NCBI GenBank assembly: GCA_038205115.1
Contig: JBBRCE010000005.1
Location: forward strand, 79,754 to 143,753
Source: Pirellulales bacterium
GTDB lineage: Bacteria > Planctomycetota > Planctomycetia > Pirellulales > JBBRCE01
Reading direction: 5' to 3'
Length of the DNA stretch: 64,000 nucleotides
Positions 35,807 through 57,869 of this stretch are shown here, in pieces. Numbering within the stretch: the stretch's first letter is position 1; every line of letters begins with the position of its first letter. Made by a program: the position numbers and the translations under genes. The notes under the pieces are model-generated. The model saw only the letters and a list, made by a program, of their open reading frames with translations. It made no database searches and was not told where the DNA came from.

Positions 35807-36781
35807 TCATTTCAGCAGATTCGCGCGACTCCATTTCCCAAATGTGGCCTCAACCGTAACGGTTTTGATCGGCGTTCCACGTTGCAACACCAGGACTGCT
35901 TTTTCACCGGGCGCCTTTTGCACCATTTGCTTGAGAAACCCCTGGAAATCCTTGACTTCTTGTCCACCAAACTCAATCAGCACATCGCCCGCGCGGATGT
36001 CGCATTTTTCGGCTGGCGATCCGGCTTGAACGGTGGTGATCGGCGCGCGCTCTTGCGCCACGTTTCCCGATTGCAGGCCCAGAAACGCGCCGCGCCGCCA
36101 ATCGACATGCGCACCCGTGGCCGCGGCGACTTTTTCCGCGGTTTTTTCGTCCAGCCCCGTATCGTACAGTCGAATTTCCCCAACGCTACGCACTTGCATC
36201 AGGGCAGCGAGGCCCTCGGCGTCAATCGGCACCGACCAGATGCACAGTAATTCGAGCCGATTGAGCCTCGACAAATGTTTAAGATCCTTCGCGTGGCCAC
36301 GCCAGGCTTCGTCGAGAATGACGTATTGCGGCTGATTTTGCCCGGGCTCAATTGCGACCTCGGCGTTGAGACGTTTGAGCTCCGCAACCGCGCGTGCCAT
36401 TTTCGCTAGCGGCTGATTGTTCAGCGCGGCGCGCGCAATCCGCGCCGCCGACGAATCCGCCTGTTGCGAGAGCGCGGTCAACGCGGCATGCGCGTCAGAA
36501 TCCGTTTGCTCGTCGTCCGACGCGGCATACAAATCCGCCATCGCCTGGCTCGCACGCCAGCGAACTTCGGGGTCGTCGTCAACGGCCGCCTGCCGCAGCA
36601 ATGCGATTGCATCGCTACCACCGCCTGCCAGCGCGCGCATCGCATTGTCGCGCGCTGAAAAATCGTCGGAACGAAGATCGGCAATCCAGCGTTGCAACGT
36701 CGCCGGAGTTGCGCGCTGCTCAGCGCACAGCGCGGCGTGACCCGCGCACGACAGCACGATGAACAGGCAGCAGTTGCGCAT
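35807..36781 (-). CDS. Secreted HEAT-like/LRR-like/PDZ protein (paralog 1)
   Basis: Signal peptide; DDPEVRWRA HEAT-like segment; GAFLG...VQAGSPAEK..I..GDV PDZ. Confidence 0.8.
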   Translation of the reverse strand: MRNCCLFIVLSCAGHAALCAEQRATPATLQRWIADLRSDDFSARDNAMRALAGGGSDAIALLRQAAVDDDPEVRWRASQAMADLYAASDDEQTDSDAHAALTALSQQADSSAARIARAALNNQPLAKMARAVAELKRLNAEVAIEPGQNQPQYVILDEAWRGHAKDLKHLSRLNRLELLCIWSVPIDAEGLAALMQVRSVGEIRLYDTGLDEKTAEKVAAATGAHVDWRRGAFLGLQSGNVAQERAPITTVQAGSPAEKCDIRAGDVLIEFGGQEVKDFQGFLKQMVQKAPGEKAVLVLQRGTPIKTVTVEATFGKWSRANLLK

Positions 36782-36820
36782 TGTGCGATCCTACAGCAAG
36801 AATGTCGACGGGCGAATTCC

Positions 36821-37807
36821 CTAGGGCGTCGATTTCAGTTGCCAGCGCCCGAGCGTGGCCTTTAACGTCAACGTCTCGACGGGGTCGTTACGCTGCACGA
36901 CGATGGTGGCCGTTTCTTTGGGCTCTTTTTTGGCGATTTCTTTGGTCAGCGAATCGAAGTCGGTCACTTCGGCGCCGTCGAACTTAACGATCAGATCGCC
37001 CGTGACGATGCCGGCCTTTTCGGCGGCCGAGCCGGGTTGAACGGTGCTGACGCGACAGCCCGGCACGCCGGGCATGGGGCCGATTCCAAGCAGCGCGCCC
37101 TTCCGCCAATCGACCGTGGCGCCGGTTGCCGCGGCGATTTTCTGCGCGGTTTTTTCGTCCAGCCCGCTGCCATAAAGCTGAATTTTATTGACGCCGCGCA
37201 GCTTCATCAGCATGGCCACCGCTTCGTCATCCAACCGCAGCGACCAAATGCAAAGCAGTTCGAAGTCGCCCAGCCGCGTCAATTGTTGAAGGCCGGCATT
37301 TCCGCCACGCCACTCGTCGTCGAGAATCACCTGCACTTGTTCTTGCATTTCCACGTTCAGACGCGATAAGCGGACATCTCCACCTAGGCGTTGGATCTCG
37401 GCCTTGGCTTGCTGCTGACGCACAACGGCGTGATGCCGCAGAATATCGCGCGCGGTAGATGCCGCCAGCCCTGCGGCCTGGTCGCGGATAGCGAACAATG
37501 CAGTCTCGGCGGCGGTACTCAACGTTGCGTCGTCAACCGAATCCGCCATTTCACCCAGCGCTTGCAGCGAGCGCCAACTAGCTTCCGGACTCTTGCCCAC
37601 CGCGGCCTGCTGCAAGGGGTTGACGGCGGCAGCTCCCGCCGCCGCCAGGCATTTGGTGGCTTGCTCGCGCACCGAGTAATCGTCGGCGTCGATCTCGGTG
37701 ATCCAGCGTTTTACGCTGCCAGCCGACGCTGGAGTGTCACCGCGCGTGGAATCGTTGCCGAGTACCACGCCGAGCACAACGGCAATCCCTCCTAGCCACC
37801 TGAGCAT
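36821..37807 (-). CDS. Secreted HEAT-like/LRR-like/PDZ protein (paralog 2)
   Basis: Same architecture; GALLG...VQPGSAAEKAGI..GDLI. Confidence 0.8.
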   Translation of the reverse strand: MLRWLGGIAVVLGVVLGNDSTRGDTPASAGSVKRWITEIDADDYSVREQATKCLAAAGAAAVNPLQQAAVGKSPEASWRSLQALGEMADSVDDATLSTAAETALFAIRDQAAGLAASTARDILRHHAVVRQQQAKAEIQRLGGDVRLSRLNVEMQEQVQVILDDEWRGGNAGLQQLTRLGDFELLCIWSLRLDDEAVAMLMKLRGVNKIQLYGSGLDEKTAQKIAAATGATVDWRKGALLGIGPMPGVPGCRVSTVQPGSAAEKAGIVTGDLIVKFDGAEVTDFDSLTKEIAKKEPKETATIVVQRNDPVETLTLKATLGRWQLKSTP

Positions 37808-42665: not shown

Positions 42666-42733
42666 CGACCACGGCCGGACAATAAACACGCAGACCTACG
42701 CACACTTGCGGAACGTCGATGAGGATCGGCAGC

Positions 42734-45043
42734 ATGGCTTGGCCCACGAATCGAATTGTTGCGGCAGCGCTCGCTTTGACCGGCCTGCTGATCGCGGTTG
42801 CTCCGCTCCGCGCGGCGTCCGTGCTCGTCGAGGCAGAAAGTTTCGATCGGCCCGGCGGTTGGAGTTTGGATACCCAGTCCATCGTCGGTATGGGCTCGCC
42901 CTATTTGCTCGCGCACGGTCTTGGTAAGCCGGTGGACGATGCATCGACCACCGTCAAATTTGCCAAGCCGGGCACATATCACATTTACGTGCGAACCAAG
43001 GATTGGGTTGCGCGTTGGCAAGCGCCTGGCCAGCCTGGCAAGTTCCAACTACTGGTCGATGGCGTCGCGCTCAAACCCATCTTTGGCACCGCAGGTGCCG
43101 ACTGGTTTTGGCAAGCCGGCGGCGAGGTGGATGTCAAATCCACCGCCACCCTAACTCTGCACGACCTGACCGGCTTCGAAGGCCGCTGCGATGCCGTCTG
43201 GTTCACGCAGGGCGATGAGCGGCCCCCCAACGATCGCAAAACACTCGACGCCTGGCGCCGCAAACAGCTCGCGCTGCCAGAGCAATTGGCCGTAAAAAAA
43301 GGTTACGACCTGGTGGTTGTCGGCGGTGGCTACTCGGGCTTGGGGGCGGCGATTTCCGCCGCGCGCATGGGCTGCAAGGTGGCCTTGATTCAAGATCGCA
43401 GCGTGCTCGGCGGCAATGGCTCCAGCGAAGTCCGCGTTTGGGCGATGGGCGAAATCAAACGCGGCAAGTATCCGCACATTGGCGAAATCGTCGAGGAATT
43501 CGCCGATCACGCCACCAAGTCGCCCGGCACGGCCGAAATGTTTGGCGACGAAAAAAAATCCAACGTCGTCGTCGCCGAAAAAAATATCGATCTGTTTCTC
43601 AATTATCACGTCTTTCGGCTCGAAACAAACAACAAGCAGATTCAATCTGTCGACGCGCTCGACACCCGCACTTCCGAGCAAACCCGCTTCGTCGGCCGCT
43701 TCTTCTGCGACGCCACAGGGCATGGCGCCGTGGGCGCGATGGCCGATGCGGACTTCGAAATGAAGGCCGATGGCCGCATGGGCATGAGCAACATGTGGAC
43801 CTGGGCCGAAGAAAAACAGCCGACCAAGTTTCCCGAAACGCCGTGGGCCCTCGATCTGAACATGAAGGATTTTCCCTATCCCAAGGATTTTCACGCCGAG
43901 TGGTTCTGGGAAGGCGGTTTCAATAAAGACGCCATCAACGACGCCGAAGGCATTCGCGATTGGAACCTGCGAGCAATTTACGGCGCGTTCAATGCCATGA
44001 AGAATCGCGATGGCGCCGACAAACATCGCAACGCCGCGCTCACCTGGGTGGCCTACATCGGCGGACCGCGCGAATCGCGCCGGCTACTGGGCGATGTGCT
44101 GCTCACCCAGCAAGACGTCGTCGGCAAACGCGACTTTCCCGACGGCTGCGTGCCCAGCACTTGGTCGATCGATCTCCATGTGCCCAAAAAACAGTACGCC
44201 GAAAAATTTCCCGACAACCCATTCATCTCCATCGCGCAGTTCGACAGCCGCGTCGATCGCACCTATGGATATCCCATTCCTTACCGCTGCTTTTACTCCC
44301 GCAACGTCGACAACCTGTTCATGGCCGGCCGCTGCATCAGCGTCTCGCACGAAGCGCTCGGCACGATCCGCGTCATGAAAACCTGCGGCATGATGGGCGA
44401 AGTGGTCGGCAAAGCGACGTCGGTTTGCATCGTGCATGGCTGCGATTCTCGCGACGTCTACGAGAAATATTGGAACGACTTGGACGAACTGCTGCGATTG
44501 CCCGGCAAAGCCCGCCGCGCCACCACTGCTGATCCGCTCTCGGAGCAGCCCAGCCCGCCAAACAAAGAACCGGTGGCCGGCGCAAATGCAAAAAAAGAAA
44601 CCGCGCAGACTGGGATCGATCCCCAGACATTGCCCGGGCTCGTAATTGATGACGTTGCCGCCCAGCACACCGGCAAATGGACGGCAGGTGTCGGCCTGCC
44701 CGGCTACGTCGGCCAGGGCTATGTTTACGCGCCCGCGGATAGCGATGCCAGCATTCGTTACGAATTCCAGTCGCCCGGTGCCGGCAAGTTTGAGATTCGC
44801 ATGTCGTACGGTCAGCACGAAAATCGCGGACGCACCGTGCCGGTGGTTGTGCAAACCGCCGCCAAAAAAGCGATTCTTGCCATCAACATGCGCGAAAAAC
44901 CACCGCTCGACAACGGCTTTATTTCGCTGGGCGTGTTTGACTTAACCCAAGGCGAAACCGTGGCCGTCACCATCGCGACCAAGGGCGCCGGCGGCAACGT
45001 TCATGCAGACGCCATCCAAATTTTGCCGGCTGAGAAAAAGTAG
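42734..45043 (+). CDS. Exported FAD-dependent oxidoreductase with N- and C-terminal beta-sandwich domains
   Basis: GAGGA SD; signal peptide; VVGGGYSG, LGGN.SSE, DATG.G, RESRRLLG, IPYRC.YSRN..NL.MAGRCIS. Confidence 0.88.
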   Translation: MAWPTNRIVAAALALTGLLIAVAPLRAASVLVEAESFDRPGGWSLDTQSIVGMGSPYLLAHGLGKPVDDASTTVKFAKPGTYHIYVRTKDWVARWQAPGQPGKFQLLVDGVALKPIFGTAGADWFWQAGGEVDVKSTATLTLHDLTGFEGRCDAVWFTQGDERPPNDRKTLDAWRRKQLALPEQLAVKKGYDLVVVGGGYSGLGAAISAARMGCKVALIQDRSVLGGNGSSEVRVWAMGEIKRGKYPHIGEIVEEFADHATKSPGTAEMFGDEKKSNVVVAEKNIDLFLNYHVFRLETNNKQIQSVDALDTRTSEQTRFVGRFFCDATGHGAVGAMADADFEMKADGRMGMSNMWTWAEEKQPTKFPETPWALDLNMKDFPYPKDFHAEWFWEGGFNKDAINDAEGIRDWNLRAIYGAFNAMKNRDGADKHRNAALTWVAYIGGPRESRRLLGDVLLTQQDVVGKRDFPDGCVPSTWSIDLHVPKKQYAEKFPDNPFISIAQFDSRVDRTYGYPIPYRCFYSRNVDNLFMAGRCISVSHEALGTIRVMKTCGMMGEVVGKATSVCIVHGCDSRDVYEKYWNDLDELLRLPGKARRATTADPLSEQPSPPNKEPVAGANAKKETAQTGIDPQTLPGLVIDDVAAQHTGKWTAGVGLPGYVGQGYVYAPADSDASIRYEFQSPGAGKFEIRMSYGQHENRGRTVPVVVQTAAKKAILAINMREKPPLDNGFISLGVFDLTQGETVAVTIATKGAGGNVHADAIQILPAEKK

Positions 45044-46801
45044 GTGACTGCCCTCCCCCGGCAACGCGGCGCTCCGCGGCGACTCGCCCTGCACGCTCTG
45101 CGGGTGGCCATGTTTGTTGCCATCGTCACGCTCATTCACCTTGGGCAGCGAAAATACAACGACCGCGAATCACGTAACTGCGGCGATTGGCAACCCGTGC
45201 CGCTGGCCACCGTGCAAACATTGTGGCCCGAAGCGGCCGAACTGCTGCCCGTCGAACTGGCAACCGACCGCCGTGACGTGGTCGATGCCGCCGGCGCTCG
45301 TCTGGGCTTTGTGTTGCAAACTTCGCCGCAGGGTGACGCGGCCATCGGCTTTTCTGGCCCCACGAATTTGCTAATTGGCTGCGACGACACGCAGCACATT
45401 CGCGGAGTGGTCGTGCTGAGTAGCCGCGACACCCAAGAACACGTCAGCCGCATTCGAACCGATCCCAAGTTTTTGCAGCAGTTCAATGGGCGCACGCTTT
45501 CGGACGTCGCCGCACAGTCGCGAGTGGATGCGGTGTCTGGCGCCACGCTCACTTGCGACGCCATGGCCGAAGCGCTCGCCCGCCGCGCCGGCGGCGCGCC
45601 GACATCGCTCAAGTTTGCTGAAGCTGTTAGCGTCACCGACGTCCGTGTCCTTTTTCCGAACGCGGCCGAAGTCTTGCCCGATCGCGGCGAGCCATCGATG
45701 ACTCGCGTCCACGATGCGGCCGGCATGCCGCTGGGCTGGACGCTGCGAACCGCGCCCGCGGCAGATAATATCGTCGGCTACCAGGGTCCGACTGATACGC
45801 TGATCGGTTTCGATCCGGCCGGCAAGATCGTGGGCATCGCCATCCGCGGCAGTTTCGACAATCAGCCATATGTCGGCTACGTGCGCGACGACCGAGAATT
45901 TCGGGCGTTGCTCAACGGAAAATCGCTGGAAGAAATCTTGGGAATGGATCTGTCCGAGGTCGAAGGCGTCTCCGCGGCCACGATGACAAGCCAGGCGGTA
46001 GCCCGTGGCATCGCCGCCGCGATCGACCGTCACCTGGCAAATCACAAGGACGAAAACAAACCGGCCAACGCGCCGGCCAACGCGCCGGCTAGCGTGCGAC
46101 AGCCGGCGTCGTCGAACATTTCGGCCAACATTTCGGCCAGCGACTACGGCGCGGCGATGCTGATCTTACTGGGCTTGCTGATCGGTTTTACCAACCTCCG
46201 CGGCCAGCCCTGGGCGCGAATCATCTTTCCGCTGGTCGTGCTGATTGACCTGGGCCTATATTCCGGCACGCTGTTGTCACAAGCACAGTTGGTCGGTTGG
46301 GCGCAAGCCGGCCTGCCGCGCGGAGCCGCCGGATTGCTGCTGCTCACGCTGGCTGCTTTCATCGCGCCCATCGTCAGCAAACGCAATATCTATTGCTCGC
46401 ATCTCTGCCCGCATGGCGCGGCGCAACACGTAATCCATCGCCTGATCCGGCCGCGATTTCACCTGTCGGGCAACGTAAAAAAACTGGCCAAACTCATCGC
46501 TCCGATCTTACTGGTGGTCAGTGTGACGGTCGCCATCACGCATTGGCGGTTGAGCCTGGTGGACATCGAACCGTTTGACGCCTATGTGTTTCGCGTGGCC
46601 GGTTGGTCGACCATCGCCATCGCCGTGCTGGGCCTGCTGACTTCTGGCTTTGTGCCGCTGGCTTACTGCCGTTACGGTTGCCCAACCGGCGCCATGCTGG
46701 AATATCTGCGTCGCAATGCCCGTAGCGATCGCTGGACGCGTCGCGATTGGTTTGCCGCAGCGCTGTTGGCGTTGGCTGCGGCACTCTATGTCGCCGCGTA
46801 A
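45044..46801 (+). CDS. Membrane protein with two FMN-binding (flavinylation) domains and NosR/NapH-like CxxxCP membrane domain
   Basis: VDAVSGATLT and VEGVSAATMTS flavinylation motifs; YCSHLCPHG and YCRYGCPTG; several TM helices; starts right after the upstream stop. Confidence 0.88.
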   Translation: MTALPRQRGAPRRLALHALRVAMFVAIVTLIHLGQRKYNDRESRNCGDWQPVPLATVQTLWPEAAELLPVELATDRRDVVDAAGARLGFVLQTSPQGDAAIGFSGPTNLLIGCDDTQHIRGVVVLSSRDTQEHVSRIRTDPKFLQQFNGRTLSDVAAQSRVDAVSGATLTCDAMAEALARRAGGAPTSLKFAEAVSVTDVRVLFPNAAEVLPDRGEPSMTRVHDAAGMPLGWTLRTAPAADNIVGYQGPTDTLIGFDPAGKIVGIAIRGSFDNQPYVGYVRDDREFRALLNGKSLEEILGMDLSEVEGVSAATMTSQAVARGIAAAIDRHLANHKDENKPANAPANAPASVRQPASSNISANISASDYGAAMLILLGLLIGFTNLRGQPWARIIFPLVVLIDLGLYSGTLLSQAQLVGWAQAGLPRGAAGLLLLTLAAFIAPIVSKRNIYCSHLCPHGAAQHVIHRLIRPRFHLSGNVKKLAKLIAPILLVVSVTVAITHWRLSLVDIEPFDAYVFRVAGWSTIAIAVLGLLTSGFVPLAYCRYGCPTGAMLEYLRRNARSDRWTRRDWFAAALLALAAALYVAA

Positions 46802-46831
46802 CCGCCAAACCGTCGCTGGCGAGCTTGTGGT

Positions 46832-46860
46832 TTGACAGCCTGCGGTTCGCTGGTGATACT
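46832..46860 (+). promoter_or_regulatory. Putative internal sigma70-type promoter for cld
   Basis: TTGACA-N17-GATACT, 50 nt upstream of ATG 46910. Confidence 0.55.
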
Positions 46861-46909
46861 GCCCTGGGGAAATGAGGGCGGCGTTGATTTCAACAGAACC
46901 AGGTGATCG

Positions 46910-47488
46910 ATGTCGTCTGCCACAATGCCCGCCAATCGGTTGTTCACATTTGCCGGTGTCGCTGCCGGCACATGGCGCGTCGATGCCGTTCGGCCGATCG
47001 TCGGTGAGTCGCTGCCGCAGGTCAATTTCGTGAATATGCTGGGCGAAACCGTGCCCACGCCAACCACGGCGGTATGGTTGCTCCGCGGCATTGTCAGTAA
47101 TGAGCGCTACGTGACCCGCGCGGAAAAAACAGAACTCGTCAACAAACAGCAGGGCCTCGGCCGCGCGGATTCCACCCGCGCCGCGCTGATTCCCATCCGC
47201 AAATCGCCCGCCTGGTGGGGCCTAACCCAAGACGAGCGTCGCGCGGTACTGGAAGAACAATCGCAGCACATTAAGATCGGCCTGAAATATCTGCCGGCTA
47301 TTGCTCGGCGGCTGCATCACTGTCGCGACCTCGGACCAGGCGAGCCGTTCGACTTTTTAACGTGGTTCGAGTTCGCGCCGCAAGACGCGCCGGCGTTCGA
47401 TGAATTGGCCGCCGCTTTGCGCGAATCACCGGAATGGAAATTCATCGATCGCGAAGTCGATATCCGCCTCTCGCGTGATGCGGCGTAG
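46910..47488 (+). CDS. cld: Chlorite dismutase, short (clade-2/dimeric) type
   Basis: W.LRG..S..RYV.RAEK, AALIPIRKS.AWW.LTQDERR, HI...LKYLPAIAR.L.HCRD, EPFDFLTWFE, EW....REVDIRL with the distal catalytic Arg. By recall it closely resembles Nitrobacter-type short Cld. Confidence 0.9.
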   Translation: MSSATMPANRLFTFAGVAAGTWRVDAVRPIVGESLPQVNFVNMLGETVPTPTTAVWLLRGIVSNERYVTRAEKTELVNKQQGLGRADSTRAALIPIRKSPAWWGLTQDERRAVLEEQSQHIKIGLKYLPAIARRLHHCRDLGPGEPFDFLTWFEFAPQDAPAFDELAAALRESPEWKFIDREVDIRLSRDAA

Positions 47489-47534
47489 CCGTCTGGAATT
47501 GCCGTTTCCACGTTCAACCGAATCGATACGCCCC

Positions 47535-48830
47535 ATGCTCCTGATGAGTTGCCCGCCGCGACACATATTGCGTGCCCTGCCGATCATGATCGTGGCGCTG
47601 GCCGGCGTCTCTGCTGCGCGCGGCCAAGAGAACATCGCGCTCTCGGGGCCGACGATGGGTGCCACCTATCACATCAAGTTGGCTCGGTTGCCCGCCGGAC
47701 TCACTGCCGGCGCTCTGCAGGCAAAAGTCGAAACGCTGCTGGCGAATCTGGATGCTCAACTTTCGACTTATCGCCCCGACTCGGAATTGTCGCGGTTTAA
47801 TCGCAGCCCCAGCACCGATTGGTTTGCAGTCTCGCCCGCGCTGGCGGACGTCGTACAGCTTTCGCTCGATATTTCCGCGCGCTCCGGTGGCGCGTTCGAT
47901 GTCACCGTCGCGCCGCTGGTCCAACTCTGGGGTTTCGGCCGCCAGAACGGTCTGCCGCGAATTCCCAGCGACGCGGAGATCGCCACGGCCAAGCAATCCG
48001 TCGGCTGGCAAATGCTCGATGTGCGTCGGCATCCGCCGGCGCTGAAAAAATCGCGGCCGGAGCTACGTGTCGATCTGAATGGCATTGCCGGCTTTGCGGT
48101 GGATCGGTTGCAAGCCTTGTTCGATTCGCAAGGGATTCACGACGATCTGATTGAACTCGGCGGCGAAATGTTCGTCTCCGGCCATAGCGCCAGCGGTCAG
48201 GCGTGGCGAGTTGGCATCGAACAACCGGACGAGCGCCAAGTGGCGCTGCAAATGACGATTGGTTTCGATGCCGGTGGTTTTTCCGTCAGCGGCGACTACC
48301 GGCACTTTTATGAGCGCGATGGCCGCCGCTATTCGCACATCATCGATCCGGCCCGTGGTTGGCCCATTCGTTATCGCGGCGTGGCCTTGGCGGTTGCCGC
48401 CGAAAGTTGCGCCCAGGCAGACGCGTGGACCAAGCCGCTGCTGATTCTTGGCCCCGAGCAAGGCCTGAAACGGGCAGACGAACTGGGGCTGGCAGCTTGC
48501 TTTGTGCTGCGTGATGACGACGACGCCCGCCCCGGCGCGGAATCTCCGCAACCGTCATCCGCGCCATACCACTTCCTCGTCCGCGCTTCGAAAAACTTTC
48601 AGCGACGATTTCTGGCCGGCGACGCGCCTGCAGCCTCGCCCGTGTCATCGCCGGCGGAATCATCATTGCCGCCGGCTCGAAACCTCGCAATCACGAATCC
48701 ACCCGCCGGTCCGTTACTGGCGCAACAGCCGCCCGAAAACAAACCGCTACTGTGGGCGGCCGTTGGGCTGTGCATCGCTGCCTACGTCGGCATGCGTCTC
48801 TGGCGCCGCCGCGAACCGCCGCCCGACTAG
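47535..48830 (+). CDS. apbE: FAD:protein FMN transferase, atypical
   Basis: G.TMG.TY.I, STYRPDSELSRFN, GAFDVTV.PLV.LWG, ELGGE, WRVGIE.P, SGDY, SHIIDP; C-terminal TM. Confidence 0.88.
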   Translation: MLLMSCPPRHILRALPIMIVALAGVSAARGQENIALSGPTMGATYHIKLARLPAGLTAGALQAKVETLLANLDAQLSTYRPDSELSRFNRSPSTDWFAVSPALADVVQLSLDISARSGGAFDVTVAPLVQLWGFGRQNGLPRIPSDAEIATAKQSVGWQMLDVRRHPPALKKSRPELRVDLNGIAGFAVDRLQALFDSQGIHDDLIELGGEMFVSGHSASGQAWRVGIEQPDERQVALQMTIGFDAGGFSVSGDYRHFYERDGRRYSHIIDPARGWPIRYRGVALAVAAESCAQADAWTKPLLILGPEQGLKRADELGLAACFVLRDDDDARPGAESPQPSSAPYHFLVRASKNFQRRFLAGDAPAASPVSSPAESSLPPARNLAITNPPAGPLLAQQPPENKPLLWAAVGLCIAAYVGMRLWRRREPPPD

Positions 48831-54834: not shown

Positions 54835-55359
54835 TCAATCGTGCACGGCGACGGATGCGCTTGCACGCTCGGCAAAAAACTGCGCCACTTGGCGGTCGAT
54901 CATGGCAATTGCCGGTTCGATCGCGCCGGCAACGGCCGTGCTTAAGCCAATGCGGCCGTCTTCGCCCCCAAGATCGGCCGGCTCGCAGCCAACGATCAAC
55001 AAATTTCGCACTTGGCCGCCCAGGGAACTGACCATCCGCAGCACGTTGAGCGGATCCAGGCTGTGCCCGTCCAAGGCCACTGCGCCGCCGCTCGAAAGAT
55101 CGTAGTCGTTGGGATCCGGCTGCAGCAGGTAAACGCTGCCCGGCACGCCGTGTTGCGACATGGCGTCGATCAGGATGTTGAGGCCATAGCCATCCATCAG
55201 CGCAAAGGCGACATCCATTGCGCGAATTCCCAGCTCGGCAACTCGTACGCCTTCGATGGCGCCGCGCCTTATCAATCGCTGCGCAACTTCGCAGCCGAAG
55301 GCGTCATCGCCCATGAAGATGTTGCCGACGCCAATGATCTGCACGCGGTCGGCGTTCAT
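54835..55359 (-). CDS. Hydrogenase maturation endopeptidase (HybD/HupD family)
   Basis: GVGNIFMGDDAFG, IDA, PGSVY, DGHSL, VGCEP, GLS..V. Confidence 0.9.
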   Translation of the reverse strand: MNADRVQIIGVGNIFMGDDAFGCEVAQRLIRRGAIEGVRVAELGIRAMDVAFALMDGYGLNILIDAMSQHGVPGSVYLLQPDPNDYDLSSGGAVALDGHSLDPLNVLRMVSSLGGQVRNLLIVGCEPADLGGEDGRIGLSTAVAGAIEPAIAMIDRQVAQFFAERASASVAVHD

Positions 55360-55688
55360 GGCCGATGCTCATGGGCTTGATCGCTGGCGGCAACCGCGGG
55401 TTCAACTTCGTCCAGCGAAAAGAAAAAGCGATGCGCGATTTGTCGCAGCAGACCCATATCGCGCCCTGGGTCATCATCGACGACCACCGCCAAATGGATC
55501 TGATCTTCGAAGTCCTGTTCGATGGCTTCGATGACAGCTAGCTTGCCCTTGAGCGCGATGTCCATGATATCGGCCTTGCGGCGTGGCCAGAGCCGCACGC
55601 GATCGCCGACGCTGAATTCCATGCCAGCGTGTTGCACGCTCTGCAGTGGCGCGCGATTCTCATGCTCGTTCCAATGAAATGGTGTCAC
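55356..55688 (-). CDS. Hypothetical hydrogenase-cluster protein (SH3/KOW-like)
   Basis: GDRVRL.P...ADI.D..L.G..A.I..I..D....HLAV..DDDPG.D.G....HRFFF..DEVEP; overlaps both neighbours by 4 nt. Confidence 0.8.
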   Translation of the reverse strand: MTPFHWNEHENRAPLQSVQHAGMEFSVGDRVRLWPRRKADIMDIALKGKLAVIEAIEQDFEDQIHLAVVVDDDPGRDMGLLRQIAHRFFFSLDEVEPAVAASDQAHEHRP

Positions 55689-56773
55689 CCGTTGGTCTCC
55701 AGTACCTGTTTGAGCCCACGAATGGCGCCATGCAATCGCGCCAATTGCTCCGGCGGCAGCGACTCCGTGCGCTCAAGCAATTGCCGCGCACGCGAATCGA
55801 GCCCACGCATTTGATTTTTTTCGACATCCGTGAGCGACATAATACTGAGCGTCAGCAATTCGTCGTTCTCCGTGCCGTCGAATAAATCGCCCGGACTTTC
55901 CGGCGCGATCTGTGGATAATCGTACAAAATGATCGGCGAAGAAAGTAACAGATCGCAATCTCCCGGCTCGCCCACCAGCACCGGCCAAGTGCCCACATTC
56001 TGGCAGTCCGCCGCGTGATGGCGAAATTCCTCAGGCGTTTCCAGCAACGAAACGAACTGGCCATTGCAAACGCCCAGCACGGTATGCGTCGAGATCATTG
56101 AATGCAGCAGCGCCGCGTCGCGCTCAACGCAATTGCCCGCATGCTGAGCGTCTGACGAAACCGTTTGATTGATGATATCCACGCGAATTTTGAACATGTC
56201 ATCGCCAAGCGCCCAGCTCGAAATTTCGATGGTGCCGTGCAGCGCGTGCTGCGTGCGAATGACTTGCGCGACGACCTGCCCCGCGCGGTTGGCCAGCGGT
56301 TCGCGGCTTGTTCCGCCCGGCCAAACGAATTCGCAGCGTTGCGGTTGCGTGGATCGTTGCTGCAACCGCAGCGAATCGACCACAAACTCGCGTTCTTCGG
56401 CCTCTTGCCAGGTAGAAAAGTGCTGACCATCAATCTCGATCGATTCTTGCGTCTGGTAGAATTCACCGAGCGGTGAGCCGACTTCATCATCGGTCGTCGC
56501 AAACGGCGGTTTGGCAACTGCAATTTCTCGCAAACGAAGTTGCAAACAACGCACGCGAATTTCCAGCCGCGTCTCGGCATGGCCTTGCACCAGACACTCG
56601 GTTCGCATGCGGTTGACGCCGTCGCCAATGCGCTGCGGCACTCCGCCCTGCGGATAGAGCACGCCAAAATTAAATCGCTGCTGATTTTTCAAGGCCGAGG
56701 CGCAATACGGATACAGCACGTAGCCCTCGTACAGCACGGTGCTTGCAATTTTTTGTACGGCGGCGAGATTCAT
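55685..56773 (-). CDS. Conserved hypothetical protein of group 1h-type [NiFe]-hydrogenase clusters (HhaC-like, by recall)
   Basis: VLYEGY.LYPY...ALKNQ.RF.FGVLYP, WQEA.ER, LLSSPIILYDYPQIAPESPGDLFDGTE.DELLTL. Confidence 0.72.
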   Translation of the reverse strand: MNLAAVQKIASTVLYEGYVLYPYCASALKNQQRFNFGVLYPQGGVPQRIGDGVNRMRTECLVQGHAETRLEIRVRCLQLRLREIAVAKPPFATTDDEVGSPLGEFYQTQESIEIDGQHFSTWQEAEEREFVVDSLRLQQRSTQPQRCEFVWPGGTSREPLANRAGQVVAQVIRTQHALHGTIEISSWALGDDMFKIRVDIINQTVSSDAQHAGNCVERDAALLHSMISTHTVLGVCNGQFVSLLETPEEFRHHAADCQNVGTWPVLVGEPGDCDLLLSSPIILYDYPQIAPESPGDLFDGTENDELLTLSIMSLTDVEKNQMRGLDSRARQLLERTESLPPEQLARLHGAIRGLKQVLETNG

Positions 56774-56806
56774 GAAATCACCTGCGATGTGAAATCCATT
56801 GTGCTT

Positions 56807-57508
56807 TCAAACGGGGCTAGCCGCGGGCGAGGTTTGCGGCAGCAAGCCGATAAACTCCGCGCGGCGCAGCGCCAAATAAGCCAGCCACTCGGTCAGGCCT
56901 TCGCCCGTTTTTGCCGACAACGTCATGACATCCACGCCCGGCCGAACTTGCTGAATGTTTTTCAGCGCCAGCGGCAGGTCGAATTCTACGGCCGCGGCTA
57001 GATCGATTTTGCTGATCACCACGGCGTCGACGGTATTGATTAGCGACGGATATTTGAGCGGTTTGTCTTCGCCTTCGGTGACGGACATGAGCATCACGCG
57101 AAACGCCTCGCCGAGATCCCAACTCGTGGGGCAGACGAGGTTGCCGACATTTTCGATGAACAAAAAATCGTAGTCGGACAGCGTCCACTCGGCCAGCGCG
57201 CCGCGAACCATTTCGGCTTCCAGATGACACATCGCTCCGGTGAGAATCTGTCTGGCCGGAGCGCCGCTGGCCGCCAGTCGCCGCGCGTCGTTGTCGGTGG
57301 CCAGGTCTCCAACCACGGCCGCCACGCGATGCGTTTTGCGTAGCGCCGCCAGTGTTTTAGTAAGCAGTTCCGTCTTGCCAGATCCGGGACTCGAGACGAC
57401 ATTCGTCGCAAACAGGCCGGCACCGACAAAATCCGCGCGCATCGCCCGCGCGAGCTCATCATTCTTTTTGAGAATCTTGGTTCTCAATTCAACAATCCGC
57501 GGCGGCAT
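56807..57508 (-). CDS. hypB: Hydrogenase nickel incorporation GTPase
   Basis: SSPGSGKT, D.AT..DA.RL, CHL, ENVGNLVCP, EGEDKPLKYP, K.DL. Confidence 0.96.
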   Translation of the reverse strand: MPPRIVELRTKILKKNDELARAMRADFVGAGLFATNVVSSPGSGKTELLTKTLAALRKTHRVAAVVGDLATDNDARRLAASGAPARQILTGAMCHLEAEMVRGALAEWTLSDYDFLFIENVGNLVCPTSWDLGEAFRVMLMSVTEGEDKPLKYPSLINTVDAVVISKIDLAAAVEFDLPLALKNIQQVRPGVDVMTLSAKTGEGLTEWLAYLALRRAEFIGLLPQTSPAASPV

Positions 57509-57869
57509 ATTCGTCGATCTCCCTATCGTCAATTTCCATACTGACCAGGTCAAGTTCCTGGCCACTGACAATTTCCGAGCACGGCGCATAGCAGGCCGGA
57601 CAAGCAAAATTCAGCACGTCCGTTAATGTTTGGTCCGCGTCACACGCCGTACAGCGAACCACCAGCGGCAGTTCGATGATTTCCAGTTCCGCACCGGCGC
57701 ACAGCGTGCCTTCGGCAACTAACTCAAACGAGAATTGTAAAGACTCTTTGACGATTGCGGCTAGAGCCCCAATCTTAACCGTCAACTTGCAAACGCGCGC
57801 CGCTTGCTCTCTCTCCGCCGCTTCACAGGCAAGTTCGATCAAATGCTGCGCGACGGAAAGTTCGTGCAT
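57489..57869 (-). CDS. hypA: Hydrogenase nickel chaperone
   Basis: MHELS, CTAC, CPAC, G.EL. Confidence 0.95.
   Translation of the reverse strand: MHELSVAQHLIELACEAAEREQAARVCKLTVKIGALAAIVKESLQFSFELVAEGTLCAGAELEIIELPLVVRCTACDADQTLTDVLNFACPACYAPCSEIVSGQELDLVSMEIDDREIDEYAAADC

Follow-up and report, generated by a model that had tools for sequence, protein, structure and literature searches.

Why does a chlorite dismutase (Cld) gene lie within a cluster of flavinylation and electron-transfer genes in a bacterium of the order Pirellulales? The window analysed here is a stretch of 64,000 nucleotides from a metagenome-assembled genome (G000; 119 contigs, 99.99% complete) that derives from a sediment metagenome. 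The locus is composed of four co-oriented genes on the + strand, which encode an exported PF12831 FAD enzyme (FADox), a membrane protein, Cld, and ApbE (Table 1). The initial annotation proposed two readings: an undescribed oxychlorine module, in which a flavinylated wire couples the membrane to a periplasmic flavoenzyme, or a recent insertion of cld into an ordinary flavinylation operon. Our analysis indicates that a stand-alone clade-2 cld probably landed in the spacer between the membrane-protein gene and apbE of a conserved three-gene operon, in this lineage only, and would serve ordinary chlorite detoxification with no physical link to the flavin wire.

Table 1. Features of the cld locus, in window coordinates.
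Feature	Coordinates	Strand	Size and remarks	Evidence
Exported FAD-dependent oxidoreductase (FADox)	42719..45043	+	774 aa; alternative start 42734	Pfam, hydropathy, AF2 model, Foldseek, phmmer
NapH-like membrane electron-transfer protein	45044..46801	+	585 aa	Pfam, NCBIfam, TM scan
Spacer ahead of cld	46802..46909	+	108 nt	One sigma-70-like site
Clade-2 chlorite dismutase (Cld; short, dimeric-type)	46910..47488	+	192 aa	Matches to solved clade-2 Clds
ApbE flavin transferase	47478..48830 (or from 47535)	+		Pfam, NCBIfam, TM scan

The open reading frames and Pfam matches confirm the four-gene arrangement of the initial annotation, whose start for FADox, 42734, is the second Met. Its identification of the first product as an exported FAD oxidoreductase, the third as a short Cld retaining the distal Arg, and the fourth as ApbE also holds, given the matches described below. 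The GTG start of the membrane-protein gene directly abuts the stop codon of the FADox gene. The apbE start at 47478 gives an 11-nt overlap with cld, and the start at 47535 leaves a 46-nt gap after it. No terminator-like site was found on the + strand between the genes. The tight packing (the 108-nt gap ahead of cld, then the short overlap or gap) suggests co-transcription, and co-expression could reflect selection rather than accident. The spacer contains a sigma-70-like site at 46832-46860 (TTGACA-17-GATACT, 10/12). The two promoter-like sites in the region equal the chance expectation (1.8 +/- 1.5), and the spacer site is thus a lead only.

Cld strongly matches solved clade-2 Clds, namely 9gtj (1.9e-74 over query residues 9-190), 3qpi (1.4e-61), and 5k8z (2.6e-51). 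Its match to the Pfam family Chlor_dismutase (PF06778) is weak, with 29 bits against a cut-off of 25, and its best database relative shares 71% identity. The residues named for PaCld in PMC12525007 (His115, Arg128, Glu170, Lys93, Tyr62, Arg105, and Arg106) were transferred to the window's Cld via the alignment with solved Clds. The proximal His120 and the distal Arg133 are separated by 13 residues and align with the His and Arg of 9gtj and 5k8z; the row of a variant, 7oua, is unlike 5k8z at the position aligned with R133. The haem-stabilising network of E175, K98, Y67, R110, and R111 is complete. These catalytic and network residues are invariant in 18 homologues except R111, which is present in at least 90% of the rows. 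Judged by its residues, Cld is a textbook clade-2 enzyme with every catalytic residue. PaCld (9GTJ), NwCld (3QPI), and Cyanothece Cld (5K8Z) share its length class, the His/Arg pair, the Glu/Lys/Tyr/Arg-Arg network, and the lack of a signal peptide. The protein itself is no different from them, and its genomic position alone is unusual.

Hydropathy and TM scans found no signal peptide, TM segment, or other hydrophobic segment in Cld. No in-frame start lies farther upstream, since the start codon of the ORF is the first to follow a stop codon. Cld is predicted to be cytoplasmic, whereas the FMN domains, FADox, and ApbE are predicted to be extracytoplasmic. Lineage-2 Clds are described as small, cytoplasmic, extensively transferred, and located in very diverse neighbourhoods (PMC9751292).

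The membrane protein contains two stretches of FMN_bind (1.5e-19) and two of Fer4_5 (PF12801; 5.4e-15). A TM scan reveals six hydrophobic segments, consistent with one TM helix at the N-terminus, a pair of extracytoplasmic FMN_bind domains, and about five further TM segments. The protein carries the flavinylation motifs DAVSGAT (163-169) and EGVSAAT (307-313) and the CxxxCP motifs CSHLCP (451-456) and CRYGCP (542-547). Thr168, Thr313, C451, C455, C542, and C546 are invariant among 16 orthologues. The second flavinylation motif ends in SAAT here and in SGAT in the orthologues, with G311 conserved in at least 90%. The initial annotation had described an abutting gene whose product bears two motifs of each type and no ferredoxin domain. 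This description stands, in that Pfam detects no canonical Fer4-type ferredoxin domain, C-terminus included, yet the CxxxCP motifs are what Pfam names Fer4_5, a '4Fe-4S binding domain'.

NCBIfam gives partial matches of the membrane protein to NosR, NapH, and RnfG. NosR or NapH proper was rejected as its identity, since the protein has no Fer4-type domain and its scores are far under the cut-offs (NosR, 56.2 bits against 1000; NapH, 22.6 against 213). NosR, PceC, and NapH proper likewise join FMN_bind domain(s) to downstream TM helices that bear CxxxCP, but they end in a cytoplasmic ferredoxin domain (2x[4Fe-4S]) that the membrane protein lacks. The locus has no nos, nap, or pce genes in its vicinity. 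By domain content, the protein is NapH-like, as it combines a multi-TM PF12801 region with FMN_bind, a Thr-ending motif, and an ApbE in the cluster.

ApbE matches Pfam PF02424 with 8.6e-76, and its NCBIfam score of 256 bits is under the equivalog cut-off of 498. A signal-like segment precedes the ApbE domain, which is followed by a Pro-rich tail and, at the C-terminus, by a TM segment located by TM scan. It shares 50.6, 42.0, and 40.7% identity with the operon ApbEs of same-order relatives and 36.9 and 31.0% with the genome's own two paralogues (contigs C54 and C10), neither of which has an FMN_bind neighbour. Because ApbE is closer to the relatives' operon ApbEs than to its own paralogues, it is an orthologous operon member and did not arrive together with cld.

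Orthologous loci were found in 20 Planctomycetota genomes, with FADox adjacent in 10/20, ApbE adjacent in 8/20, and Cld in 0/20. Metagenomes gave a further 80 loci: 35 of the 40 with at least 2.4 kb upstream include FADox, and 44 of the 66 with at least 1 kb downstream include ApbE. Cld is absent from all 100 of these operon loci. The gap between the FMNbind and ApbE HSPs in the metagenome loci is 29-233 nt (median 110, n=49), which leaves no room for a 579-nt cld. G011, of the same order, has the operon on one contig, where ApbE abuts the membrane gene, and a Cld on a separate contig, flanked by genes for an ABC ATPase and a DUF1501 protein. The planctomycetal genome G434 likewise has both genes, the membrane-protein gene and cld, on different contigs. 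Cld occurs in 4/401 genomes of the phylum sample and in 2/41 of the order, both counts including G000, which is the sole genome of its family in the sample and has no close relative there to display an empty site.

By gene content, the genes for FADox, the membrane protein, and ApbE make up an operon that is conserved in planctomycetes and is a case of the NapH-like flavinylation systems, for which 2,465 clusters with modular partner enzymes have been described (Méheust et al., eLife 2021, PMC8238504). The operon shares with these systems the PF12801 CxxxCP region, an N-terminal extracytosolic FMN-binding domain, ApbE in the cluster, and a modular extracytosolic oxidoreductase. It differs from them in three features: two FMN_bind domains instead of one, a partner that is a CBM-flanked PF12831 FAD enzyme, and the inserted cld. 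The main text of PMC8238504 has 0 occurrences each of PF12831, FAD_oxidored, and Planctomycet, and the cluster may be in its Supplementary file 1.

The surroundings of cld in other bacteria do not resemble this locus. A tblastn search of 80 clade-2 cld loci, with single queries that very divergent ApbE or FMN_bind genes could escape, found ApbE nearby in 0/80 and FMN_bind/NapH-like genes in 0/80. ApbE, FMN_bind, Fer4_5, and FAD_oxidored were matched by 0/128 immediate cld neighbours in a Pfam check that covered the nearest ORF on either side. Other genomes studied here do have cld beside cupin and integrase genes or nitrate-assimilation-type genes, kinds of neighbour catalogued in PMC9751292. 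ApbE, FMN_bind, and NapH-like families are absent from the linked subfamilies in Table 1 of that survey of 8,751 cld neighbourhoods (Barnum & Coates, PMC9751292), and the words ApbE, flavin, and FMN are absent from its main text. Like the non-respiratory contexts that it describes, the present cld is stand-alone, horizontally mobile, and set in one of many diverse, often unrelated neighbourhoods; the ApbE/FMN_bind/NapH-like surroundings are particular to the window's locus when compared with that Table 1. A literature search found no work on chlorite dismutase paired with ApbE.

The initial annotation had made its oxychlorine module depend on recurrence of cld with FMN_bind and ApbE genes. The linkage did not recur at the operon loci, at the cld loci, or among the immediate cld neighbours. 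It is absent from the Barnum & Coates table, and the predicted compartments of Cld and the flavin proteins differ. The reading of the locus as an undescribed oxychlorine module therefore fails the annotation's own test.

The annotation noted no perchlorate or chlorate reductase in the window, and a molybdopterin-enzyme search extends this to the whole genome, in which no perchlorate, chlorate, or Nar-type reductase was found. The genome has three PF00384 hits, all on contigs other than the window's: an Fdh/NasA-like enzyme whose scores reach no cut-off, a YdeP-family enzyme, and NuoG. The C12 molybdoenzyme was considered as an assimilatory nitrate reductase and hence as a chlorite source. This was rejected as unproven, because every score falls short of its cut-off and the adjacent genes include none for nitrate or nitrite. 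A (per)chlorate reduction island or chlorate transposon combines cld with a Pcr/Clr-type enzyme of the DMSO-reductase family; on the predicted gene content, the locus is neither.

The second reading, a recent insertion into an ordinary operon, is retained in part. The insertion itself is upheld. 'Recent' is not, in view of native composition and the lack of repeats, and 'ordinary' is only partly apt, as the operon belongs to a known NapH-like class and has an uncharacterised partner enzyme. The GC3 of cld is 0.694 (genome, 0.695 +/- 0.037) and its CAI 0.698 (genome, 0.708 +/- 0.050). Its GC likewise equals that of the genome, and composition is uniform across the genes of the locus. A compositional test for a foreign origin of cld thus showed no anomaly. 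Direct and inverted repeats around cld (46600-47800) are short pairs only, none of them placed as a target-site duplication. Given the native-like composition and the lack of an insertion scar, the insertion offers no date and no direct sign of transfer. In the free Cld tree, the window's Cld groups with a Vicinamibacterales sequence among mostly proteobacterial Clds (97% SH-aLRT), suggesting inter-phylum transfer. This origin was not adopted, because the AU test does not reject a tree that keeps all nine planctomycetal Clds together (p-AU 0.493). Thus, no donor is claimed.

Two alternatives to an insertion concern the history of the locus. Deletion of an ancestral operon cld from all other lineages would fit the native-like composition and the AU test, which does not reject a single planctomycetal Cld clade. 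Such a history is nonetheless very unlikely, as it needs loss at all 100 sampled loci with the FMNbind-ApbE spacing held at 29-233 nt, and G011 and G434 carry their Clds at other loci. Cld-bearing operon loci occur at one tip only in present data. An assembly chimera, in which a foreign cld fragment was stitched into the contig, is conceivable for a metagenome-assembled genome in 119 contigs, but extremely unlikely. A Logan contig of run X1 (4,834 nt) matches 44800-48236 with 0 differences and an even depth of 10.3. This contig is not independent data, X1 being the probable source sample, but it spans both cld junctions and shows that the arrangement does not depend on a single assembler. The second sample of the study, X2, yielded short exact matches to cld (47097-47363), to the membrane gene, and to apbE, and no contig across the cld junctions. 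The uniform composition across the genes also speaks against a chimera.

The remaining alternatives accept the insertion and give it a function. Cld may have become fixed here as a useful co-expression partner of the flavin wire. For instance, chlorate might be reduced to chlorite in a side reaction of the FAD enzyme, the FMN domains, or the NapH-like module, or one of these might encounter reactive chlorine. Alternatively, O2 derived from Cld might feed the flavoenzyme in anoxic sediment. The operon-like packing without intervening terminator-like sites, the intact Cld with all its catalytic residues, the sediment origin of the genome, and the uncharacterised oxidoreductases included among Cld-linked genes (Barnum & Coates, PMC9751292) are consistent with such an add-on. 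We consider it unlikely, because the linkage does not recur (0/100 operon loci, 0/80 cld loci), Cld and the flavin wire are in different compartments, the operon is kept across the phylum without cld, and no chlorate-reducing enzyme was identified in the genome. Slightly more doubtful still is a recruitment in which cld, transcribed together with the operon, would protect an extracytoplasmic flavin-wired FAD system that produces or meets chlorine oxyanions, or supply it with O2. If true, such a recruitment would connect ApbE-type flavinylation with chlorine redox biology for the first time. As a lead in chlorine biology the locus matters little, the linkage being a one-off and Cld a textbook clade-2 enzyme.

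Under the preferred reading of a lineage-specific insertion, Cld would act in the cytoplasm as a haem enzyme, turning chlorite into chloride and O2. Its gene would probably be co-transcribed with apbE, through operon read-through or by a promoter within the 108-nt spacer. The role of Cld would be ordinary chlorite detoxification, with no physical tie to the flavin wire. The locus illustrates clearly how easily cld settles in unrelated operons, and it cautions against inferring function from one neighbourhood alone.

Of more interest than cld is the host operon. Conserved across Planctomycetota, it encodes an exported FAD enzyme with flanking carbohydrate-binding-like modules, the NapH-like protein with two flavinylation motifs whose gene abuts that of the enzyme, and often ApbE. 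FADox matches FAD_oxidored (PF12831; 1.2e-68) and Golvesin_C (2.3e-18), and a hydrophobic signal-like segment spans residues 12-30 at its N-terminus. It comprises a conserved beta-sandwich N-domain (~34-165), the PF12831 flavoprotein core, and a C-terminal Golvesin_C/CBM-like domain (~630-770). In Foldseek searches, its AF2 model (pLDDT 78.4) resembles the FrdA/SdhA/flavocytochrome c3 class and the module at the C terminus of xanthan lyase 6f2p, the latter with an rmsd of 2.1 over 136 columns. The phmmer search also matched residues 900-1037 of 6f2p. FADox shares 58-66% identity with its orthologues, except for one row at 50%.

Family knowledge and the conserved adjacency of the genes suggest how the operon may work. 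ApbE would load the two periplasmic FMN_bind domains with FMN, at Thr168 and Thr313. Electrons would cross the membrane through the CxxxCP/TM module, in either direction, between a quinone or cytoplasmic pool and the FMNs. The FMNs would in turn exchange electrons with the FAD enzyme, whose substrate is probably glycan-associated. A predicted complex of FADox 34-620 with the FMN_bind region 50-335 of the membrane protein scored 0.07 against a mark of 0.32, a value that counts neither for nor against binding. With no assigned substrate, the operon is a tractable target for the study of extracytoplasmic oxidation or reduction in these bacteria. A metagenome scan found at least 507 related stretches, and a protein search with FADox found relatives in at least 7,991 protein clusters at E <= 1e-50.

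Four genes in the same orientation fill positions 42719–48830 of the plus strand, encoding an exported FAD enzyme (FADox), a NapH-like membrane protein, a chlorite dismutase (Cld), and the flavin transferase ApbE. Gene 2 starts at the base directly after the stop codon of gene 1. The four co-oriented genes reported in the initial annotation are all present with their domains recognized by Pfam, as are the quoted DAVSGAT, EGVSAAT, and two CxxxCP motifs of gene 2. The flanks are unrelated, with a trypsin-like/PDZ protease gene upstream and, downstream on the opposite strand, an unassigned ORF and a U32 peptidase gene.

Features of the cluster and of other loci discussed
Feature	Coordinates	Strand	Description
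Gene 1, FADox	starts 42719	+	774 aa; signal-like hydrophobic N-terminus (residues 12–30); PF12831 FAD_oxidored core (1.2e-68); C-terminal Golvesin_C (Pfam)
Gene 2, membrane protein		+	585 aa; FMN_bind x2, Fer4_5 (PF12801) x2 (Pfam); six hydrophobic segments
Second flavinylation motif of gene 2	45962–45982		residues 307–313
Gene 3, cld		+	192 aa; Pfam Chlor_dismutase marginal (29 vs cut-off 25 bits)
Gene 4, ApbE	ends 48830	+	Pfam 8.6e-76; signal-like segment and C-terminal TM segment
ApbE tail	48300–48830		Pro/Ala-rich, ~100 residues, TM segment at its end
HEAT-repeat + PDZ paralogs	35807–37807	-	two in tandem, 324 and 328 aa
Hydrogenase maturation genes	54835–57607	-	HycI-type protease, HypB/CobW-type GTPase
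Fused gene, genome G434	L137:5810–8533		907 aa; FMN_bind + Fer4_5 + ApbE
Fused gene, genome G196	L138:5141–7831		896 aa; FMN_bind + Fer4_5 + ApbE
Second Chlor_dismutase-family gene, contig C16 of this genome	L232:3983–4978	-	331 aa; 160 bits

The arrangement is reproduced in Logan, a second assembly of the sequencing runs, where a contig of run X1 matches 44800–48236 with zero differences. An assembler-specific chimera is therefore excluded, although the match is not independent biological replication, because the genome probably derives from X1. Pieces of each of the three downstream genes also occur, with exact identity, in X2, a second sample of the same study.

Judged by sequence, genes 1, 2, and 4 constitute a conserved operon that lacks cld. 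Full-length gene 2 orthologs occur in 6 of 40 genomes of the same order (three weak partial matches lie outside this count), and matches at E ≤ 1e-30 in 27 other genomes of a 400-genome phylum sample. The six same-order loci and the 14 best new loci of full-length type were surveyed; 12 lower ones, covering the query from about residue 192 onward only, were omitted. FADox lies directly upstream of gene 2 at 10 of the 20 loci and ApbE directly downstream at eight (9/18 and 8/20, respectively, counting only loci with sufficient flank), and Cld is found at none of the 20. Where FADox is missing, the neighbors are unrelated, PEGA, GDPD, and sulfatase genes among them. A metagenome scan with a 16-sequence gene 2 alignment returned 80 further loci. 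Of the 40 loci with 2.4 kb or more of upstream sequence, 35 contain FADox; of the 66 with 1 kb or more of downstream sequence, 44 contain ApbE; and none of the 80 contains Cld. FADox orthologs with named hosts belong to Blastopirellula, Pirellula, Planctomicrobium, Maioricimonas, Fuerstiella, and Candidatus Anammoximicrobium, which assigns the genome to Planctomycetota.

The interval between the membrane-gene match and the ApbE match is 29–233 nt (median 110) in 49 metagenome loci; in the window it exceeds 700 nt and is occupied by cld. The ApbE of the window shares 50.6, 42.0, and 40.7% identity with operon ApbEs of same-order relatives, and less (36.9 and 31.0%) with the two other ApbE paralogs of its own genome. 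Thus, apbE is an original operon member, and cld was placed ahead of it.

Other arrangements of the NapH-like gene were also observed. In four loci of one planctomycetal family (L129, L131, L133, and L134), it lacks an adjacent FADox, and the genes after it encode a small PEGA-domain protein and a GDPD phosphodiesterase, suggesting an alternative conserved context. The next ORF was scanned at two of these loci, L129 and L131, and is a sulfatase gene at both. In two of the eight ApbE-containing genome loci, FMN_bind, Fer4_5, and ApbE are fused in one ORF, so that the flavin transferase is tethered to its own substrate.

The reverse survey covered 80 clade-2 cld loci from across bacteria (857 kb in total, median 12.4 kb). 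By tblastn, neither ApbE nor an FMN_bind/NapH-like gene is found in any of them, and the sole FADox-like match, in L074, is weak (1.8e-4). The nearest ORF on either side of cld was scanned with Pfam for 128 of 138 ORFs, the other ten belonging to five loci (L034, L036, L038, L042, and L094) whose layouts duplicate other listed loci. None of the 128 contains ApbE, FMN_bind, Fer4_5, or FAD_oxidored. These neighbors are very heterogeneous, with a few cupin and integrase pairs and a few nitrate/nitrite-assimilation-type genes. Two planctomycetal genomes possess both systems, and in each, cld and the operon are on different contigs; in G011, of the same order, Cld is flanked by genes for an ABC ATPase and a DUF1501 protein, and the other is G434. 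The recurrence of cld with FMN_bind and ApbE genes that the initial annotation proposed to look for was found in neither survey. Barnum & Coates clustered 8,751 Cld neighborhoods; no flavin transferase, FMN-binding, or NapH-like subfamily is listed as linked to Cld in their Table 1, and 'ApbE', 'flavin', and 'FMN' are absent from their main text (PMC9751292). Our literature search found no publication pairing chlorite dismutase with ApbE.

Two groups of identical Clds were seen among these loci, one in Stutzerimonas, Pseudidiomarina, and Atopomonas (L033, L034, L036, and L038) and the other common to Alcanivorax and Marinobacter (L039 and L042). A cupin gene lies upstream in both, and an integrase-family gene downstream in L033, which was the locus scanned for the first group. 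Both represent the published mobile cupin–cld pair (PMC9751292).

Two readings had been offered for the cluster, an undescribed oxychlorine module and a recent cld insertion into an ordinary flavinylation operon. The module reading is not supported, as the linkage recurs in neither survey. Insertion is supported by the conservation of the operon without cld, and the position of cld is shown to be lineage-specific. Cld is rare among the genomes sampled from the phylum (4/401 genomes; 2/41 in the order; both counts include this genome), and extensive horizontal transfer of Cld has been described (PMC9751292). The word 'recent', however, is not borne out. The composition of cld is that of the genome (GC 0.608; GC3 0.694 vs 0.695 ± 0.037; CAI 0.698 vs 0.708 ± 0.050 over 918 long ORFs), and no flanking repeats were found around it. 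In an unconstrained tree, Cld pairs with a Vicinamibacterales sequence within a mostly proteobacterial set (97% SH-aLRT), but a tree uniting all nine planctomycetal Clds is equally good (p-AU 0.493). For these reasons, we name no donor and do not call the insertion recent.

By sequence, the inserted gene encodes an ordinary, intact clade-2 Cld. It aligns over its full length with the solved PaCld (9gtj, 1.9e-74), NwCld (3qpi, 1.4e-61), and Cyanothece Cld (5k8z, 2.6e-51). The PaCld study lists residues conserved among functional Clds (His115, Arg128, Glu170, Lys93, Tyr62, and Arg105/106 in PaCld numbering; PMC12525007), and these align with H120, R133, E175, K98, Y67, R110, and R111, all present. 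Among 18 homologs, R111 is at least 90% conserved and the others are invariant, including R133, the distal arginine that the short protein was said to retain. Homologs are very numerous; scoring 8,000 candidates gave at least 7,699 clusters with E ≤ 1e-20, the best at 71% identity. The protein is predicted to be cytoplasmic, because no hydrophobic segment was found and the ORF already opens at the first start codon following a stop; lineage-2 Clds in general are reported as cytoplasmic (PMC9751292). The longer family member on contig C16 is probably a ChdC/HemQ-type protein rather than a chlorite dismutase.

The genome is 99.99% complete and contains three molybdopterin enzymes, Fdh/NasA-like (below all cut-offs), YdeP-like, and NuoG. 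The lack of perchlorate and chlorate reductases noted for the window extends to the whole genome, where the search recovered no enzyme of the Pcr, Clr, or Nar type. A part for Cld in respiratory (per)chlorate reduction is thereby ruled out, and chlorite detoxification is the default reading of its role. Cld is likely co-transcribed with apbE, given the tight spacing and no terminator-like site seen on the plus strand between the genes. The spacer ahead of cld contains one sigma-70-like site, a number within chance expectation.

The base operon fits the NapH-like flavinylation class (2,465 clusters), in which ApbE and a modular partner oxidoreductase accompany a PF12801 membrane protein whose N-terminus carries an extracytosolic FMN-binding domain (PMC8238504). 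Across 16 gene 2 orthologs, neither flavinylation-motif threonine varies, nor does any of the four CxxxCP cysteines. Gene 2 is not NosR or NapH proper, because both models score far below their cut-offs and no Fer4-type ferredoxin domain is detected by Pfam, in agreement with the absence claimed initially. At its second flavinylation motif, the window has SAAT where the aligned orthologs have SGAT, with Gly311 at least 90% conserved.

No solved structure is closely related to FADox outside the dinucleotide-binding motif. Foldseek places the flavoprotein core of the FADox AF2 model (pLDDT 78.4) alongside the FrdA/SdhA/flavocytochrome c3 class, with low whole-chain TM scores. The C-terminal module of the model superposes on that of Paenibacillus xanthan lyase (6f2p) with an rmsd of 2.1 Å over 136 columns, and the model also resembles a CBM35-containing mannanase. 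In the proposed mechanism, ApbE would flavinylate Thr168 and Thr313, the membrane module would shuttle electrons between these FMNs and a pool in the membrane or cytoplasm, and the FMNs would exchange electrons with a probably glycan-associated FAD enzyme.

Unlike E. coli-type ApbE, the ApbE of the window carries a Pro/Ala-rich tail; the NCBIfam ApbE profile (351 positions) stops near residue 384. Elsewhere in the window, two HEAT-repeat and PDZ genes form a tandem pair, and the hydrogenase maturation genes, located downstream of a hybrid histidine kinase, hint at a nearby hydrogenase locus.
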